Source: Magnetococcales bacterium
GTDB taxonomy: Bacteria; Pseudomonadota; Magnetococcia; Magnetococcales; JADGAP01
Assembly: GCA_015231965.1 (NCBI GenBank)
Contig: JADGAP010000002.1
Span: 1-52,985, forward strand
Direction: 5' to 3'
Length of the DNA stretch: 52,985 nt
Of this stretch, positions 21,419 to 29,235 are shown in pieces. The notes beneath the pieces were generated by a model. The model saw nothing but the letters and a program-made list of their open reading frames with translations. It was not told the origin of the DNA and searched no databases. Position numbers and translations under genes: made by a program. Every line of letters starts with the position of its first letter. Positions within the stretch are counted from its first letter, which is position 1.

Positions 21419-21973
21419 TTACGCCGCCTTTTGGGCCATTTCCGGCGATTTTTCCAGCAATCGGGCGCAACTGTAGCGTAGGAACCGCTTCACATTGCAG
21501 GCCAGGGCCTTCATCCTGACCGCGAAAGCGACTCGCAAGAGCCCTCGCGTCCACACCTTGGCCAGTCCGTGCGCCGTCTTGAGTTCCGCATTGACCGACT
21601 CGATCCCCCGCTCCTCCAGATCATCCAACGCCGGAACCAGGGCGTGCTGATCGCTCACATGCGCCGGTGATAGGCCCGTCTCCTCCAGAGTCAGGTCGAG
21701 GGCGTAGTGGTAGCGCATATCAAAATGAAGCGACCCCATCAGTGCCTCGTCCGTCAGGTCGAACATCTCCTTCAGCACCGAAAGGGACACCAGAATCGCC
21801 ACAGGAACGTTGGGCCGCCCCAGACTGGCAGGATACAGGCCAGCCAATTCGCTCTCCGGGATCCTCTTCAGCACCCGAGTGCGGAAAATATGCGGCCAAC
21901 TCCGTTCCAACACTTCACGGCACCCATCCGGCATCCAGAAATGCGCCTCGTCCAGACTAATTTGACGGTCCAT
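21419..21973 (-). mobile_element. Internally deleted IS5/IS1182-type transposase (N-terminal DUF772-like region fused in frame to the C-terminal tail)
   Basis: N-terminal LYPASLGRPNVPVAILVSLSVLKEMFDLTDEALMGSLHFDMRYHYALDL matches the InsH N-terminal domain. C-terminal ERGIESVNAELKTAHGLAKVWTRGLLRVAFAVRMKALACNVKRF matches the IS5/IS1182 C-terminus. The DDE catalytic core between them is missing, leaving only 184 aa. Confidence 0.65.
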
Positions 21974-23437: not shown

Positions 23438-24346
23438 GTGATGAAGGTTGCGGTCGTGGTTCCCGCCTTCAACGAAGGAAAGATCATCCAACGCACCCTG
23501 CGGGCGTTGCGGGGACAGGTACCCCGTTTCGCCGAGGCGGGCCTGGAACTGAACCTCTGGCTGGTGGACGACGGCTCCACCGACGACACCGCCCAACAAG
23601 CCCAGGAGGGCGGGGTGGATCGGGTGATCACCCACCGTCGCAATCAGGGCTTGGGGGCGGCGGTGCGCAGCGGCTTCAAGGCCGCCCGGCAGGCGGGCAT
23701 GGACATCCTGATCAAATTCGACGCCGACCTGCAACACGACCCCGACGACCTGCTGCCGCTGCTCCAGCCGATCCTGCGCGGCGAGGCCGACGTGGTCTAC
23801 GGCAATCGCTTCCCCCGCATTACCTATCGCATGCCGCTGGTGCGCAAGGCGGGCAACATCGTCTTCACCGGCCTGATGCGCTGGCTCACCGGTTGGCCGC
23901 TGGAGGATGGTCAACCGGGACTGCTGGCGGTCAACCGGGCCTATCTCCAGTGCTTCTACCTGCCCGGCGACTACAACTACACCCAACAGGTGCTGATGGA
24001 CGCCTACCGCAAGGGGATGAGTTTCGCCCACGTGCCGGTGGCCTTTCATCCCCGCACCACGGGCAAGTCGTTCATCTCCTTCCGCTACCCCTTCAAGGTG
24101 CTGCCGCAAATTTTCATGGTGCTGATCGCGGTGCGCCCCCTGAAGGTCTTCGCCCCCATCGGACTGCTCTTCTTCCTGCTGGGCGCGACGCTGTTCACCG
24201 TGGAATTTTTCCAATGGCTGCTGGGCGACGCCCCCAAGCCGGTGAACCACGTCAATCTGGTGCTGGGCCTGACCCTCTTCGGGTTGCAAACCCTCTTTTT
24301 CGGCGTCCTCGCCCACCTGATCGTCGAGTTCAAAAATCGCGAGTGA
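23438..24346 (+). CDS. Glycosyltransferase family 2 with C-terminal membrane helices
   Basis: VVVPAFNEGKIIQRTLRAL...WLVDDGSTDDT...NQGLGAAVRSGF...IKFDADLQHDP (DxD). C-terminal hydrophobic helices resemble polyprenyl-phosphate sugar transferases. Confidence 0.8.
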   Translation: MMKVAVVVPAFNEGKIIQRTLRALRGQVPRFAEAGLELNLWLVDDGSTDDTAQQAQEGGVDRVITHRRNQGLGAAVRSGFKAARQAGMDILIKFDADLQHDPDDLLPLLQPILRGEADVVYGNRFPRITYRMPLVRKAGNIVFTGLMRWLTGWPLEDGQPGLLAVNRAYLQCFYLPGDYNYTQQVLMDAYRKGMSFAHVPVAFHPRTTGKSFISFRYPFKVLPQIFMVLIAVRPLKVFAPIGLLFFLLGATLFTVEFFQWLLGDAPKPVNHVNLVLGLTLFGLQTLFFGVLAHLIVEFKNRE

Positions 24347-24380
24347 ACGCCACCCCCCCCTAGGAGCGGATGGAAACGCC

Positions 24381-25652
24381 ATGGATCCTTTTCATTTCAA
24401 ACTGCCGGCGAATTACAGTTTCAAGCAAGGCGATCTGTACGACTTTGACGCCGCCATCTCGTGGTACGACTGGACCGCGACCTCTCAACCCGTGGACATT
24501 GATTTGAGACCTTGCACCCGCGCCAATTACAACGCCTTGTCGCTGCTTGTTCTGTATGTTTGGGAGTTGCACGCCAGGGGGTGTCGCATCGCATTCAAGA
24601 CCGATGAACGGGGGGACGAAAACGCTTCCCGCGCGTGGAAGATGATGGGGGCCAAGGGGTGGTGGCACGTTTTGCAAAACAGTTCCAACAATTTCAGGGC
24701 AAGCCAATACAAACCCCTGCTCGCCATCCGGGACCGGGGGGATTTTTCCAAGGCCTTATCCAAGGTGGAGGCGTTTGTCTCCGAATTCAATGTGGAATAC
24801 GAGAACACCCTGCGCTATGTGTTGTCGGAGTTGCTTTATAACACGCTAGAGCATGGCGTGGCGTACCGAAACATCGATGGACGTTCGACCCGCATTCCGT
24901 CCCTGATTCAATTCACATGGTATCGTAGACGAAACGAGCTGCAGTTTTTGATCGCCGATCTGGGCGTGGGCATCAAAAATCATCTGGAGCAGAATAAATC
25001 CTACCAGCCATTCGCCAGCGACGCCGAGGCCATCCTGTTTGCGTTGCGTCCCCAGGTTTCGGGAACCTTTGGGCGGAACGATCCCTACCGCAACAAGGAC
25101 AATGCGGGGGTCGGACTGTACTTATCCAGTCAAATTGTTCGCCGACTGCGCGCCGATCTGTACATCATCTCGGGCAACGGATTGGTGCATGTCTCTCCCA
25201 CGGATGTCACCAGTCAATCCCTTCGCCATGCGTGGCCGGGAACGTTTGTCCTGTTTGATATTCATCTCTCGCCCCATCTGGATATCAACTTCCACCAAAT
25301 GATGAGCGAATTACGGGAATCGGCCCGGCGGGAAGTCCATAACGGGCATTCCGCCGAGGAGGAGAATATTTTCTATTTCAGTCTGGAAAATTATTTTGGC
25401 CGTCACGCCGAGGACAAGGCATCCGCCATTCTCCATCGCGACCGCTCCCTGATTCCCGCCGTCGACGCGGGAAAGACCTTGCGCCTGGATTTTGACAACG
25501 TGCAAGCGGCTCCCCACAGCTTTCTCAGCGCCCTGCTGGCCACGCCGGTCAAACGTTTGGGCATGGCGGCGTATAAGAAGATCAAAATTTTGAACGCCAC
25601 GCCCGAAATTCGGGAAACGATCGACTACATCCTCGACGAAAACACCTCGTAA
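24381..25652 (+). CDS. Orphan GHKL (RsbW/HATPase_c-like) ATPase fused to a C-terminal STAS-like (DUF4325-type) domain
   Basis: N-box SELLYNTLEHG, G1 box IADLGVGI, G2-like NAGVGLYLS. C-terminal TLRLDFDNVQAAPHSFLSALLATPVKRLGMAAYKKIKILNATPEIRETIDYIL has the DUF4325/STAS-like pattern (v.lDF.gV....sF...L). Visibly lower G+C than its neighbours. Confidence 0.6.
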   Translation: MDPFHFKLPANYSFKQGDLYDFDAAISWYDWTATSQPVDIDLRPCTRANYNALSLLVLYVWELHARGCRIAFKTDERGDENASRAWKMMGAKGWWHVLQNSSNNFRASQYKPLLAIRDRGDFSKALSKVEAFVSEFNVEYENTLRYVLSELLYNTLEHGVAYRNIDGRSTRIPSLIQFTWYRRRNELQFLIADLGVGIKNHLEQNKSYQPFASDAEAILFALRPQVSGTFGRNDPYRNKDNAGVGLYLSSQIVRRLRADLYIISGNGLVHVSPTDVTSQSLRHAWPGTFVLFDIHLSPHLDINFHQMMSELRESARREVHNGHSAEEENIFYFSLENYFGRHAEDKASAILHRDRSLIPAVDAGKTLRLDFDNVQAAPHSFLSALLATPVKRLGMAAYKKIKILNATPEIRETIDYILDENTS

Positions 25653-25731: not shown

Positions 25732-27042
25732 TCAAAAGGTAAACACGTCCTTCTCCTTGGGGGCGTGGCAGTGGGTGGCGGACTGGAGTTCCCGCAGCAG
25801 GGATTGGGCGTGGGCCAGTTTGGCGTCGATGGCGTCGTCGCTCTGGTCGGGGTCGTGGTGGTGGAGGAAGAGATTTTTCACCCCGGCGTCGTGGGCCAGG
25901 CTGACCACTTGACTGACGTTGGAGTGGCCCCAGCCCATTTTGGGGCGGTATTCGTGGTCGGCGTAGGTGGCGTCGGTGATCAGCACGTCGGTCCCCTGGA
26001 CGAAGTGGATCAACTTGTTGCGGTAGGATTCGCTGTAGTGGGGGGTTTCCGGGGGATAGAGTTCGTTGTCGGTGACATAGCACAGGGAGCGGTTGCGGTA
26101 CTCCAGGCGATAGCCCAGGCAGGCCCCGGGATGGCTCAACAGCAGGGTGCGCAGGGTGATTTCCGGGGTCAAAGCGAAGCTCCCCTCCCGCAGGTCGCGA
26201 AAATAGACCCTGGCTCCGAAGGCTTTGATCTTCACCGGAAAATAGGGGCCGTCCATCTGGTTGGAGATCAGCTCCCGCATGGTGGTGTCGCCGTGGTAGG
26301 CCCCGCAAATTTCAAATTCGTTGCCCTGCATGTAGAGGGGAACGAAAAACGGCAGGCCGTTGATGTGGTCCCAATGGGGGTGGGAGATGAGAATCCGCGC
26401 CTCGATGGGCAACTTTTTTCGGCGCAGCAGATCATCGGCCAGGGGTTTGATGCCGGTGCCGCCATCGAAAATGAAAAAATCCCCCTTGGGAAATTGGGCG
26501 GTGATGCAATTGGTGAAGCCGCCATACTTGAGGGTTTGGGGGCCGCTCATCGGCAGGGTGCCCCGCACCCCCCAAAATTGCACGTCGATGGCATCGACGA
26601 GAATGCGCCCGAGATCCGCGATAAACCGCTCTGCCTCGATGGGCTTGGTGAAATAGCCGTCGGCCCCCAGGGATTGAGCCCGCTTGCGGTCGAATTCGTA
26701 GGCCTTGGCCGAGACGAAAATGACCACCCGGTCGTGCAACTCCGGACGGCTGCGAATCAGGCGACACAGCTCCATGCCGTCCATTTCGGGCATCATCACA
26801 TCCAGCAAAATCACCTCCGGATGCTCCTCCTCGATGCGGACCATGGCCTTGCGGCTGTCGTTCTCCAGGGTGACGATGGCCCCTTCCGCTGTCAGGATGG
26901 TCTGCATCACCTGGGTGTAAAAGGGATCGTCGTCCACCACCAGGATGCGGCGGCGCTGCAGCGGGGCGTTTTCCGAGGGGGTGGCGTGAGGCACGGCGGG
27001 CTCCTGACGGAGGGTTTGAGACGGGTGAACCATTCGTTGCAT
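25732..27042 (-). CDS. Response regulator receiver fused to an MBL-fold metallo-hydrolase domain
   Basis: REC domain: RILVVDDDPF...VILLDVMMPEMDGMELC...FVSAKAY...GADGYFTKP. MBL domain: FIFDGGTG...ILISHPHWDHINGLPFF (HxHxDH) ...HHHDP. Confidence 0.85.
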   Translation of the reverse strand: MQRMVHPSQTLRQEPAVPHATPSENAPLQRRRILVVDDDPFYTQVMQTILTAEGAIVTLENDSRKAMVRIEEEHPEVILLDVMMPEMDGMELCRLIRSRPELHDRVVIFVSAKAYEFDRKRAQSLGADGYFTKPIEAERFIADLGRILVDAIDVQFWGVRGTLPMSGPQTLKYGGFTNCITAQFPKGDFFIFDGGTGIKPLADDLLRRKKLPIEARILISHPHWDHINGLPFFVPLYMQGNEFEICGAYHGDTTMRELISNQMDGPYFPVKIKAFGARVYFRDLREGSFALTPEITLRTLLLSHPGACLGYRLEYRNRSLCYVTDNELYPPETPHYSESYRNKLIHFVQGTDVLITDATYADHEYRPKMGWGHSNVSQVVSLAHDAGVKNLFLHHHDPDQSDDAIDAKLAHAQSLLRELQSATHCHAPKEKDVFTF

Positions 27043-27818: not shown

Positions 27819-27910
27819 CCTATCACCTTCCCTGTGCCATTTCCTGGCTTTTTGACGCCGCCTCAAGGGGGGATTCTTTTCATTTCAGGCTTTGATAATG
27901 GATCCGAGCA

Positions 27911-27924
27911 TGATAAATTTATCA
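27911..27924. promoter_or_regulatory. Perfect 14-bp palindrome TGATAAATTTATCA; candidate operator of the downstream two-gene cassette
   Basis: The sequence is its own reverse complement. It lies 3 nt upstream of the AAAGGAGGA ribosome-binding site of the 27943 gene and just downstream of a GATAAT -10-like hexamer (27894-27899). Confidence 0.5.
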
Positions 27925-27942
27925 CGAAAAGGAGGACATTGC

Positions 27943-28698
27943 ATGGAACGGGATCTGCCAGAGGAGGCGCGGTTCATCATTCGGGGTCCGTACACGCCGG
28001 ACAACGTCCCGATGGATTTGCTCGCCCAGTTCATGCTGCAATTGGCCAAGCTGACTGGAGAGAAAAAACACGTCCATTTCGTTGGTCTTGAAGAAGGCAG
28101 TTTGATGATCAAGGAGCGCATCGAACCTCCTGCCAAGCTCAAGGTCAAGGAGCGGTTCGCCCTTTTAGATAATTGCGCCAAAGGGTTGGGGAACGACCCG
28201 GTTTATGACGAGACCGTGGCGTTGCTTGAAAAACACGGCACCACCGGAGAGCTTTGTTATGGGGATTCGCCCCAGGTCATTCCCTTTCCCGGTCCTCAAT
28301 ATCTTGCCGCCCGGGACGTTCTTACCGTCACCCAAGAGGGAAGTCTGGATGGCGTCGTTGTCACCCTCGGCAACCGGAGCGCTGCGGAGAATAAGCCGAC
28401 AACCGTCACCTTGAAGGATGGCCCCAGAATTTACTCTTGCACCGCCTGTAGAACAGTGGCTCGGGATTTGGCCAAGCACTTTGATGGCCCCGCGTTGCGA
28501 GTTTACGGTCAAGGAACCTGGAAACGCCTGTCTGACAAGGGGTGGGTGGTGGATGAGTTTCAAATCGAACGATTTGATGTCCTCGTTGATCAACCGCTTG
28601 AAGAAATTCTTCGCGAGATGGGCAAGCACTTCCAAGGATGGCGCGCACTCGAGAATCCGTGGGAGGAGTTGCGGCGCATCCGGTATGGAGACGATTGA
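27943..28698 (+). CDS. Hypothetical 251-aa protein, no family recognised; upstream partner of a PIN-like nuclease
   Basis: Strong AAAGGAGGA Shine-Dalgarno sequence 6 nt upstream of ATG 27943. The stop TGA is immediately followed by the ATG of the next gene (GAT TGA ATG). AT-richer than its surroundings. I can match no motif. Confidence 0.6.
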   Translation: MERDLPEEARFIIRGPYTPDNVPMDLLAQFMLQLAKLTGEKKHVHFVGLEEGSLMIKERIEPPAKLKVKERFALLDNCAKGLGNDPVYDETVALLEKHGTTGELCYGDSPQVIPFPGPQYLAARDVLTVTQEGSLDGVVVTLGNRSAAENKPTTVTLKDGPRIYSCTACRTVARDLAKHFDGPALRVYGQGTWKRLSDKGWVVDEFQIERFDVLVDQPLEEILREMGKHFQGWRALENPWEELRRIRYGDD

Positions 28699-29235
28699 AT
28701 GGCGATCCTCAGTGAGTCCACGGCGGTCATCGACTCATCATTATTATTGTTTCTGGCTGATCCGATGTGTTCACCACCGTTGGATCCTGATACAAACCAT
28801 CCCATCGAGCGAGCGCGTGATCGGATTGAACACCTAATTCGTGAATTGGGCAATCGCCGCACCGTGCTTTTGATTCCAGCGCCGGTTCTTGCCGAATCCC
28901 TGGTTCGAGCCGAAGCGGGTTTTATGCCGATGCTCAATCATGCGCGAAATGTTCGCATCGTTCCTTTTGATTACTTGGCGGCGGAAGAGTGCGCATCGTT
29001 GCTGCGCAGACAATTGGAAAACAAAGAGAATGCATCCACGATTCCCCAGAGTAGGCAATGCGCCAAGGTTGATTTGCAAATCGTCGCCATCGCCCGCACC
29101 CGCCACGCGGAAGTTTTATACACCCAGGACGCTGGGATGCGAAAGCTCGCCACCCATTACGGACTGGATGTTAAATCCTTGCAAGACATCGCCCCCCCTC
29201 AAATCCAACTCCCTCTTCCCCTGGAAAAGGAATAA
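28699..29235 (+). CDS. PIN-like domain nuclease (putative toxin or effector)
   Basis: Acidic-residue pattern typical of PIN: AVIDSS (Asp), IPAPVLAES (Glu), KVDLQIVAIAR (Asp), LYTQDAG (Asp), within an alternating beta-alpha pattern. 178 aa. Confidence 0.6.
   Translation: MAILSESTAVIDSSLLLFLADPMCSPPLDPDTNHPIERARDRIEHLIRELGNRRTVLLIPAPVLAESLVRAEAGFMPMLNHARNVRIVPFDYLAAEECASLLRRQLENKENASTIPQSRQCAKVDLQIVAIARTRHAEVLYTQDAGMRKLATHYGLDVKSLQDIAPPQIQLPLPLEKE

Follow-up and report, generated by a model that had tools for sequence, protein, structure and literature searches.

What can a kinase and its substrate-type domain accomplish on a single polypeptide when the genes around them encode neither a partner nor a target? 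This question is raised by a gene at 24381..25652 on the plus strand of a 52,985-nucleotide stretch of Magnetococcales DNA (contig JADGAP010000002.1), which is referred to below as the window. In the list of open reading frames (ORFs) of the window, the gene encodes 423 aa followed by a stop codon, and its frame is intact and complete. Its product, here called the K-S (kinase-STAS) protein, is by sequence comparison a fused kinase plus substrate (K+S) switch without the VapC toxin or the CapS DNA-binding domain of its relatives. This assignment is made because the protein shares the profile phrog_3364 with the kinases VapK and CapK, carries a VapS-like DUF4325 domain and has an invariant His379-Ser380-Phe381 motif. 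The protein probably acts on its own as a switch that senses phage or stress. With moderate confidence, we explain the gene as an intact, horizontally acquired, single-chain phospho-switch that would be triggered by single-stranded DNA (ssDNA) or DNA damage, would have an anti-phage role and has no output encoded nearby. The observations behind this explanation are the architecture, the homology to VapK/CapK and VapS, the conservation of catalytic and acceptor residues, the lack of a conserved partner gene, the foreign base composition and the carriage on mobile elements.

CapK and VapK were described in 2026 as sensors of DNA damage that act through a separate STAS protein, which either has a DNA-binding domain or holds a PIN toxin (Chambers et al., EMBO J 2026, PMC13373217). 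CapK, with the order helix-turn-helix (HTH)-STAS-GHKL, is switched on by ssDNA. It then phosphorylates CapS, a STAS protein with a winged HTH (wHTH), at Ser54, which frees CapS from DNA; CapKS is located upstream of CBASS, Bub and Thoeris operons (PMC13373217). In the VapKSC system, which confers protection against phage Bas42, the PIN toxin VapC is under the control of VapK (STAS-GHKL) and of VapS, a STAS domain with a short tail (PMC13373217). CapK N218, CapK W68 and VapK F54 are functionally important: N218A abolishes phosphorylation, and W68 and F54 provide aromatic stacking on ssDNA, while K237 and K239 of CapK are predicted ssDNA contacts in an AlphaFold3 model (PMC13373217).

The K-S protein is organized as a STAS-like N-domain, a GHKL kinase of the SpoIIAB/RsbW type, a long helix and a DUF4325 STAS domain. 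Its AlphaFold2 (AF2) model has a predicted local distance difference test (pLDDT) value of 86.1 and a predicted template modelling (pTM) score of 0.81. The N-terminal STAS-like domain, a putative sensor, comprises residues 1-135 (24381..24785; all features of the gene lie on the plus strand) and is beta-alpha-beta-alpha in the AF2 models, including a model of the isolated domain with pLDDT 82.3. The top Foldseek matches of the isolated domain are all STAS domains, namely 3lkl (an anti-sigma antagonist, probability 0.97), Mglu, SLC26, TM1442, RsbV and MlaB. None of these is found at an expectation value (E) <=1e-3, the best being 0.05, so the STAS-likeness of the N-domain rests on consistent weak matches and on the alignment with VapK. 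An earlier note on this DNA, made from the letters alone, had speculated about a second STAS-like module in the first ~130 aa, and the fold, the STAS-only matches and the collinearity with VapK lend this weak support.

The GHKL (Bergerat-fold) serine kinase domain, of SpoIIAB/RsbW/CapK type according to Pfam, Foldseek and phrog_3364, spans residues ~136-298 (24786..25274). Foldseek against the PDB pairs the kinase part with SpoIIAB (1til, 1th8 and 1l0o; probability 1.00, TM-score 0.66-0.69) and also with CheA-P4 and Topo VI-B. The GHKL/RsbW-like ATPase of the earlier note is thereby borne out, with its kind refined to CapK/VapK. The ATP lid at residues 234-242 is flexible or disordered in the AF2 model (pLDDT <50). 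A long connecting helix seen in the AF2 secondary structure (residues 304-327, 25290..25361) leads from the kinase to the C-terminal DUF4325 STAS domain of VapS/CapS type (residues 329-423, 25365..25649). In this domain, Pfam finds DUF4325 over residues 353-410 at E 6.8e-7, with 29.3 bits against a cut-off of 23, and Foldseek against the PDB returns RsbV and RsbS. DUF4325, HATPase_c and HATPase_c_2 are each matched by all 32 aligned homologues (best E 9e-11, 1e-8 and 1e-5, respectively), and the DUF4325-type C-terminus proposed in the earlier note is thus confirmed. Fold matches in BFVD are phage GHKL proteins and stand-alone phage DUF4325 proteins (TM 0.62-0.72). A PDB sequence search gives no match to the K-S protein, and Pfam gives no match to an HTH domain in it. 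The chain stops 1-2 residues past the last STAS helix (conserved ...EIRETIDxIxDENT); therefore, the K-S STAS domain carries no output module, neither the wHTH of CapS nor the VapC-inhibiting tail of VapS.

For comparison with the two known systems, the VapK, CapK, VapS and CapS sequences were taken from Appendix Table S2 of PMC13373217. The phrog_3364 profile matches K-S residues 32-298 at E 4.2e-28, VapK at 3.5e-38 and CapK at 1.3e-11. In hhalign, the family aligns with VapK at a probability of 83% and E 9e-6, collinearly over both domains (K-S 38-297 with VapK 40-285). The corresponding alignment with CapK has E 8.6e-5 and pairs N154 with the catalytic Asn218 of CapK (SELIGNVRDHS). It also places Y181-R184 on the CapK segment YKGKRR, in which K237 and K239 lie by a hand count of residues, and we infer DNA binding by this basic hairpin of the K-S protein from that correspondence. 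The NCBIfam model spIIAB matches the K-S protein at E 0.11 with 12.4 bits, far under its cut-off of 135. Judged by these profiles, the K-S kinase is of the CapK/VapK type and not a classical RsbW: like the known kinases, it has STAS followed by GHKL, with the N-box Asn and the G1 and G2 boxes.

The C-terminal domain has the substrate feature of CapS and VapS, a DUF4325 STAS fold with a conserved Ser at the N-terminus of helix alpha2. VapS is itself a strong DUF4325 member in Pfam (E 2.7e-17). When the C-domains of the K-S protein, VapS, the S protein of Streptococcus phage LYGO9 and the distant fused relatives are aligned, Phe381 is the sole invariant column. The residue before it is Ser in the K-S family, in the LYGO9 S protein and in the distant fused relatives, and this pair corresponds to Ser54-Phe55 of CapS; Ser48 of VapS lies one position before the Ser380 column of K-S. 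The hhalign comparison of the family with the single VapS sequence is weak (probability 1.4%), though the right motif is aligned, and the VapS relationship therefore rests on the shared Pfam DUF4325 assignment.

Conservation was judged on an alignment of 32 sequences, in which the K-S protein aligns end to end and keeps every invariant residue. The mean column identity is 60% across phyla, with ~80 invariant columns. The N box ELLYNTLEHG (residues 150-159, 24828..24857) has invariant E150, N154, E157, H158 and G159; the G1 box DLGVGI (193-198, 24957..24974) has D193, G195 and G197; and the G2 box NAGVGLYL (241-248, 25101..25124), located after the ATP lid, has N241, A242, G243, G245 and L246. 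The basic hairpin W180-Y181-R182-R183-R184 (24918..24932) has invariant W180 and Y181. In the N-domain, W31, D41 and Y59 are invariant and C45 and Y50 nearly so, and M308, R312, A315 and E318 are invariant in the connecting helix. At the N-terminus of STAS helix alpha2, in His379-Ser380-Phe381 (25515..25523), H379 and S380 are invariant and F381 nearly invariant. An [H/Q]-S-F motif is retained in the majority of the distant fused relatives, and Ser380 is the predicted phospho-acceptor. The motifs quoted in the earlier note are all present at these positions, and its two STAS-like strings are located at residues 366-386 (TLRLDFDNVQAAPHSFLSALL) and 400-418 (KIKILNATPEIRETIDYIL).

The N-terminal 300 aa of the K-S protein have the architecture of VapK (STAS and GHKL, no HTH), and the C-domain is a DUF4325 domain like VapS. 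In contrast to VapKSC, K-S is one polypeptide without a vapC gene and without the VapC-inhibiting tail, its acceptor Ser is one residue later than VapS Ser48, and the position of VapK Phe54 is non-aromatic. With CapKS it shares a GHKL kinase preceded by STAS, the equivalence of N154 and N218, a basic hairpin in the aligned segment and an identical Ser-Phe acceptor motif. It differs from CapKS in that it is fused and not divided into two genes, its STAS part has no wHTH, there is no N-terminal HTH and no immune operon follows. SpoIIAB-SpoIIAA and RsbW-RsbV provide the closest solved structures for the K-S kinase and STAS parts, and in both of them a Ser at the start of STAS helix alpha2 is the phosphorylation site, as is predicted for Ser380. 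On the other hand, K-S has no nearby sigma factor or PP2C phosphatase, has an extra N-terminal STAS domain and a covalent link between the two modules, and is a mobile gene.

The K-S family is strongly conserved but patchily distributed across many phyla. A search of 5.8 billion proteins yields 661 homologues at 39-60% identity. The best are full length (~420-445 aa, 52-60% identity) and come from Nitrospira, Desulfobulbus, Pseudomonas, Janthinobacterium, Burkholderia, Thiodiazotropha and Colwellia. Species-representative genomes contribute 73 loci, from Proteobacteria, Nitrospirota, Acidobacteriota, Cyanobacteria, Verrucomicrobiota, Veillonella, Lachnospiraceae, Leptospiraceae, Actinobacteria and Saccharibacteria. 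When 1.84 billion cluster representatives are searched with a profile, 1440 clusters are found at E<=1e-3, and 64 of these reach E<=1e-30; they include divergent ~420-aa subfamilies of the same architecture. The gene is a member of PHROG 5816, which it matches end to end (residues 8-422, E 1.9e-142), and tblastn searches of plasmids and phages retrieve distant relatives only. The earlier note had called the gene an orphan and its fusion unusual. The first description holds with respect to partner genes; the gene is, however, not an ORFan, and the supposed rarity gives way to a widespread conserved family. Two homologues, P0123 (506 aa) and P0126 (543 aa), have an N-terminal extension of ~90-120 aa. 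In P0123 this extension resembles, by eye, an IF2_N-type helix-turn-helix, and an extension of this kind would recreate the CapK-like order HTH-STAS-GHKL ahead of the fused STAS.

Horizontal acquisition of the gene is supported both here and family-wide, as the earlier note had suggested from base composition. The G+C content of the K-S ORF is 0.542, compared with 0.628 for the whole window; so low a value occurs in just 0.5% of 1272-bp sliding windows. At third codon positions it is 0.686, against 0.78-0.90 in the flanking genes. The hand count of 26 G+C in the 60 nt of 24381-24440 given in the earlier note is exact, and the lines of yggS contain 33-50. The K-S gene is AT-richer than its flanks in 59/59 loci, with a mean G+C difference of -0.113.

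Seven genomic contexts were inspected in detail. In the immunity regions of two Pseudomonas prophages, the homologue is directly downstream of a cI-type repressor and divergent from cro, the slot that rexAB occupies in lambda. In Burkholderia, it resides in a P4-like integrative element with integrase, primase, AlpA, HNH and resolvase genes, and in Desulfobulbus at the end of a conjugative element with a type IV secretion system, beside an ArdC anti-restriction gene. In Ca. Nitrospira kreftii (L074 5543-7894), the homologue is directly after PD-Lambda-5 (A protein at E 1.6e-119 and a D12 methylase) and before a PemK toxin. In Janthinobacterium (L078 7476-10271), it follows gyrB and lies by Hp2/Hp3, a GAPS4-type nuclease (PDDEXK_GAPS4), Mrr (Mrr_cat) and Fic; the PADLOC models Hp2 and Hp3 are presumably components of a 3HP system. 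A Bryobacteraceae genome has the homologue in a toxin-antitoxin/SieB neighbourhood, near Gp49/HTH, PIN and SieB genes. These contexts plausibly fit a role in defence or superinfection exclusion, although the association is heterogeneous. The defence-type role proposed in the earlier note is plausible from the inspected contexts.

Numerous further copies stand alone as inserts between housekeeping genes, and two divergent fused relatives are solo inserts as well. In Pyrinomonadaceae/Acidobacteriota (L014, L016, L020, L022, L025, L030 and L056), the gene occupies the same site between acyl-CoA dehydrogenase and MeaB, with a G+C content of ~0.40-0.45 against ~0.60 in the flanks. The pattern resembles an ancient insertion of a single gene that the lineage has retained, and the shared neighbours were rejected as partner genes, as they merely reflect an insertion between these two genes.

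A partner was sought among the neighbours at several levels. All-versus-all clustering of ORFs of at least 70 aa around the 73 loci finds no conserved neighbour beyond lineage synteny, the largest cluster comprising 9 loci. Clustering of ORFs of at least 30 aa within 1.2 kb of the same loci likewise gives lineage synteny only. No Pfam family recurs among the 148 flanking ORFs of 45 dereplicated loci, where the tally is HTH_3 4, HTH_31 3, Phage_integrase 2, Arm-DNA-bind_3 2 and SLT 2, together with many housekeeping enzymes. Sigma or PP2C families are absent among the K-S neighbours both here and in this homologue tally. PIN is not a recurrent neighbour in the 73 loci, and the K-S locus does not have the three-gene operon vapK-vapS-vapC. 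A regulated immune operon of the kind found downstream of CapKS is not present here and not conserved in the homologues. The window ORFs also confirm the statement of the earlier note that no sigma factor, phosphatase or other partner is nearby, as no sigma factor, phosphatase, STAS or PIN gene adjoins the K-S gene in the window.

Two phages carry the kinase-STAS pair, or what resembles it, in split form. Streptococcus phage LYGO9 (L084 3447-4636) has a 298-aa GHKL gene ('putative ATPase') overlapping a 99-aa DUF4325 gene, between lysin and integrase. The LYGO9 pair has the same two modules as K-S, no PIN or HTH output and a place in a prophage lysogeny or moron region. In Francisella phage KIRK, Fhv_0046/0047 are a 293-aa protein, the domains of which are unassigned, and then a 112-aa DUF4325 protein, just after cI, which is the same kind of prophage position. 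The split phage pairs differ from K-S in being two overlapping genes and in having only ~24% identity to the K-S family. They suggest that K+S alone is a functional unit in its own right. The earlier note had regarded homologues consistently embedded in a known pathway as evidence against its reading; split pairs do belong to such pathways, CapKS and VapKSC (PMC13373217), which specifies that reading and does not refute it.

The mechanism proposed for the K-S protein is drawn by analogy with CapKS and VapKSC. In the unperturbed cell, the unphosphorylated C-terminal STAS domain would keep the protein or a partner in an 'off' state. ssDNA arising from phage replication or DNA damage would bind the N-STAS/kinase groove and turn the kinase on, and Ser380 of the tethered STAS domain would then be phosphorylated in cis or between protomers. 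The STAS domain would subsequently swap its partner and initiate the output, most likely a response that targets a protein of the host or the phage and serves anti-phage defence or superinfection exclusion. Only from this analogy do we infer ssDNA activation, Ser380 phosphorylation and a defence role of the K-S protein. A more specific proposal, which we consider rather unlikely, is a one-polypeptide immune device in which phage ssDNA would cause STAS autophosphorylation. The kinase unmasked in this way would abort infection by phosphorylating or sequestering a conserved factor of the host or the phage, such as a sigma factor or RNA polymerase, or a protein of replication. If true, this would be a single-chain partner switch acting as an antiviral effector, and the first defence system with a GHKL Ser-kinase or anti-sigma-like effector.

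Several results weigh against a phage- or damage-sensing switch. Neither the chain nor its neighbourhood contains an output module or partner that would carry phosphorylation through to a phenotype, and the neighbours in the window are glycosyltransferase and response-regulator genes. PADLOC-DB v2 gives no model match for the K-S protein or for three homologues. The unbiased flank tally consists of many housekeeping neighbours with few integrase or HTH genes, and any defence-island enrichment drawn from the seven inspected contexts is anecdotal. HATPase_c and HATPase_c_2 score 24.2 and 21.3 bits for the K-S protein, both just under the Pfam cut-offs. In addition, VapK Phe54 (construct numbering) aligns with the variable R47, and the only conserved aromatics nearby are Y50 and W31; because this position varies, ssDNA sensing may not be retained in the K-S family.

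These points leave room for other explanations, and the nearest of them departs from the phospho-switch in its output step only. Under it, a single protein would make up a toxin-antitoxin or abortive-infection device, with the kinase as effector and the tethered STAS domain as a pseudo-substrate plug; we give it a small share of our credence. Autophosphorylation of Ser380 would free the GHKL domain to phosphorylate essential host or phage proteins, or to sequester them as SpoIIAB does sigma-F, and growth would stop. As no effector gene lies near the fused forms or the split forms with K and S only, either K or S would have to supply the output. Among solved folds, that of SpoIIAB, a kinase and anti-sigma factor, is the nearest, the 60% mean column identity across phyla fits several constrained interaction surfaces, and the slot after cI is typical of abortive-infection genes. 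However, the cognate STAS partner is the only substrate known for CapK and VapK (PMC13373217). A role for the benefit of the mobile element is less probable still. The protein might sense DNA damage for the lysis-lysogeny decision, or it might dampen host immunity as a decoy, by binding up ssDNA or by competing with the CapK/VapK-CapS/VapS signaling of the host. This is in line with a family that is a PHROG, with its members in prophage lysogeny modules by cI or integrase, and with the copy beside ArdC on a conjugative element. On the contrary, a passive decoy would have no need of the invariant catalytic and acceptor residues, and the adjoining cI repressors have a Peptidase_S24 domain of their own that senses DNA damage. 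Moreover, many copies, including the K-S gene here, are chromosomal solo inserts without a surrounding element, and copies also adjoin bona fide host defence systems.

A housekeeping partner switch of the RsbW/RsbV type, with its target (a sigma factor or other cellular regulator) encoded at a different place in the genome, would account for the SpoIIAB/RsbW-like and RsbV/RsbS-like folds and for the weak spIIAB match. It is improbable, given that this match is so far below its cut-off, the sequence is closer to VapK/CapK, and sigma factor and PP2C phosphatase genes are missing nearby, both here and in the homologues. The patchy distribution with 50-60% identity between distant phyla and the foreign composition at every one of the 59 loci also speak against it. 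The last explanation, that the gene is a decaying, non-functional relic of a vapKSC or capKS locus that has lost its effector, is hardly credible. It would explain the missing VapC/wHTH output, but the reading frame is intact and full length, the ~80 columns are invariant across phyla, and the same arrangement without an effector is found again in at least ~16 full-length clusters at 50% identity as well as in divergent subfamilies. Taken together, the invariant residues, the foreign composition, the lack of sigma/PP2C partners and the recurring intact architecture are the reasons why the element role, the sigma switch and the relic are rated as less likely than the phospho-switch.

The fused form is not described in the literature found to mention DUF4325, nor in the paper on CapK and VapK (PMC13373217), and a literature search combining STAS, GHKL and anti-phage terms found nothing besides that paper. 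A PIN subgroup coupled to DUF4325 genes has been noted in published work, and the KIRK gene appears in another of these papers. What the K-S family adds is that the kinase-STAS pair also circulates widely as an effector-less unit, fused here and split in some phages, and carried by prophages, satellites, conjugative elements and solo inserts in many phyla. Such a switch either has a target that acts in trans or uses its own kinase or STAS domain as the effector. Identification of the output would extend the known logic of bacterial immune signaling and of partner-switching modules, and would give a function to much of Pfam DUF4325 and of PHROGs 5816 and 3364. As a small single gene with strong conservation, K-S lends itself readily to testing.

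With regard to the local setting, the K-S gene is preceded by GT9 and GT2 glycosyltransferase genes, and a gap of 34 nt separates the stop codon of the GT2 gene from it. A Shine-Dalgarno-like AGGAG motif, read from the sequence, lies at 24362..24366 on the plus strand, 14 nt before the ATG. The plus strand shows no sigma-70-like promoter; therefore, co-transcription with the glycosyltransferase genes is possible. Downstream, after an 80-nt gap, is a convergent response regulator gene (25732-27042, minus strand), which encodes a receiver domain fused to a metallo-beta-lactamase (MBL) fold (Lactamase_B_2). Its G+C content of 0.609 is native, and there is no evidence of a functional link to the K-S gene.

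A 14-nt direct repeat, TGAACGCCAC[C/G]CCC, is present at 24344-24357 and 25591-25604 with 13 of 14 positions identical. The first copy overlaps the GT2 stop codon and the second sits 48 nt before the K-S stop codon. An insertion scar was considered and rejected, and the repeat is probably due to chance because the second copy is inside the K-S coding sequence. Approximately 2.4 kb upstream of the K-S gene, a 183-aa ORF (21419-21973, minus strand) contains pieces of IS5/IS1182-type transposase domains (DUF772 and DDE_Tnp_1_6) and is probably a truncated transposase.

A second islet of low G+C content (0.53-0.54) is located at 27892-29235 on the plus strand and encodes a 268-aa protein, without a Pfam match, that is translationally coupled to a 178-aa PIN-like protein. 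The PIN gene (28699-29235), ~3 kb off, was considered as the missing VapC and rejected; it has no similarity to the VapC of vapKSC and belongs to its own cassette. The proteins of the islet match phrog_19868 (1e-27) and phrog_21691 (1e-21), and the islet is probably an independent mobile toxin-antitoxin or defence pair.

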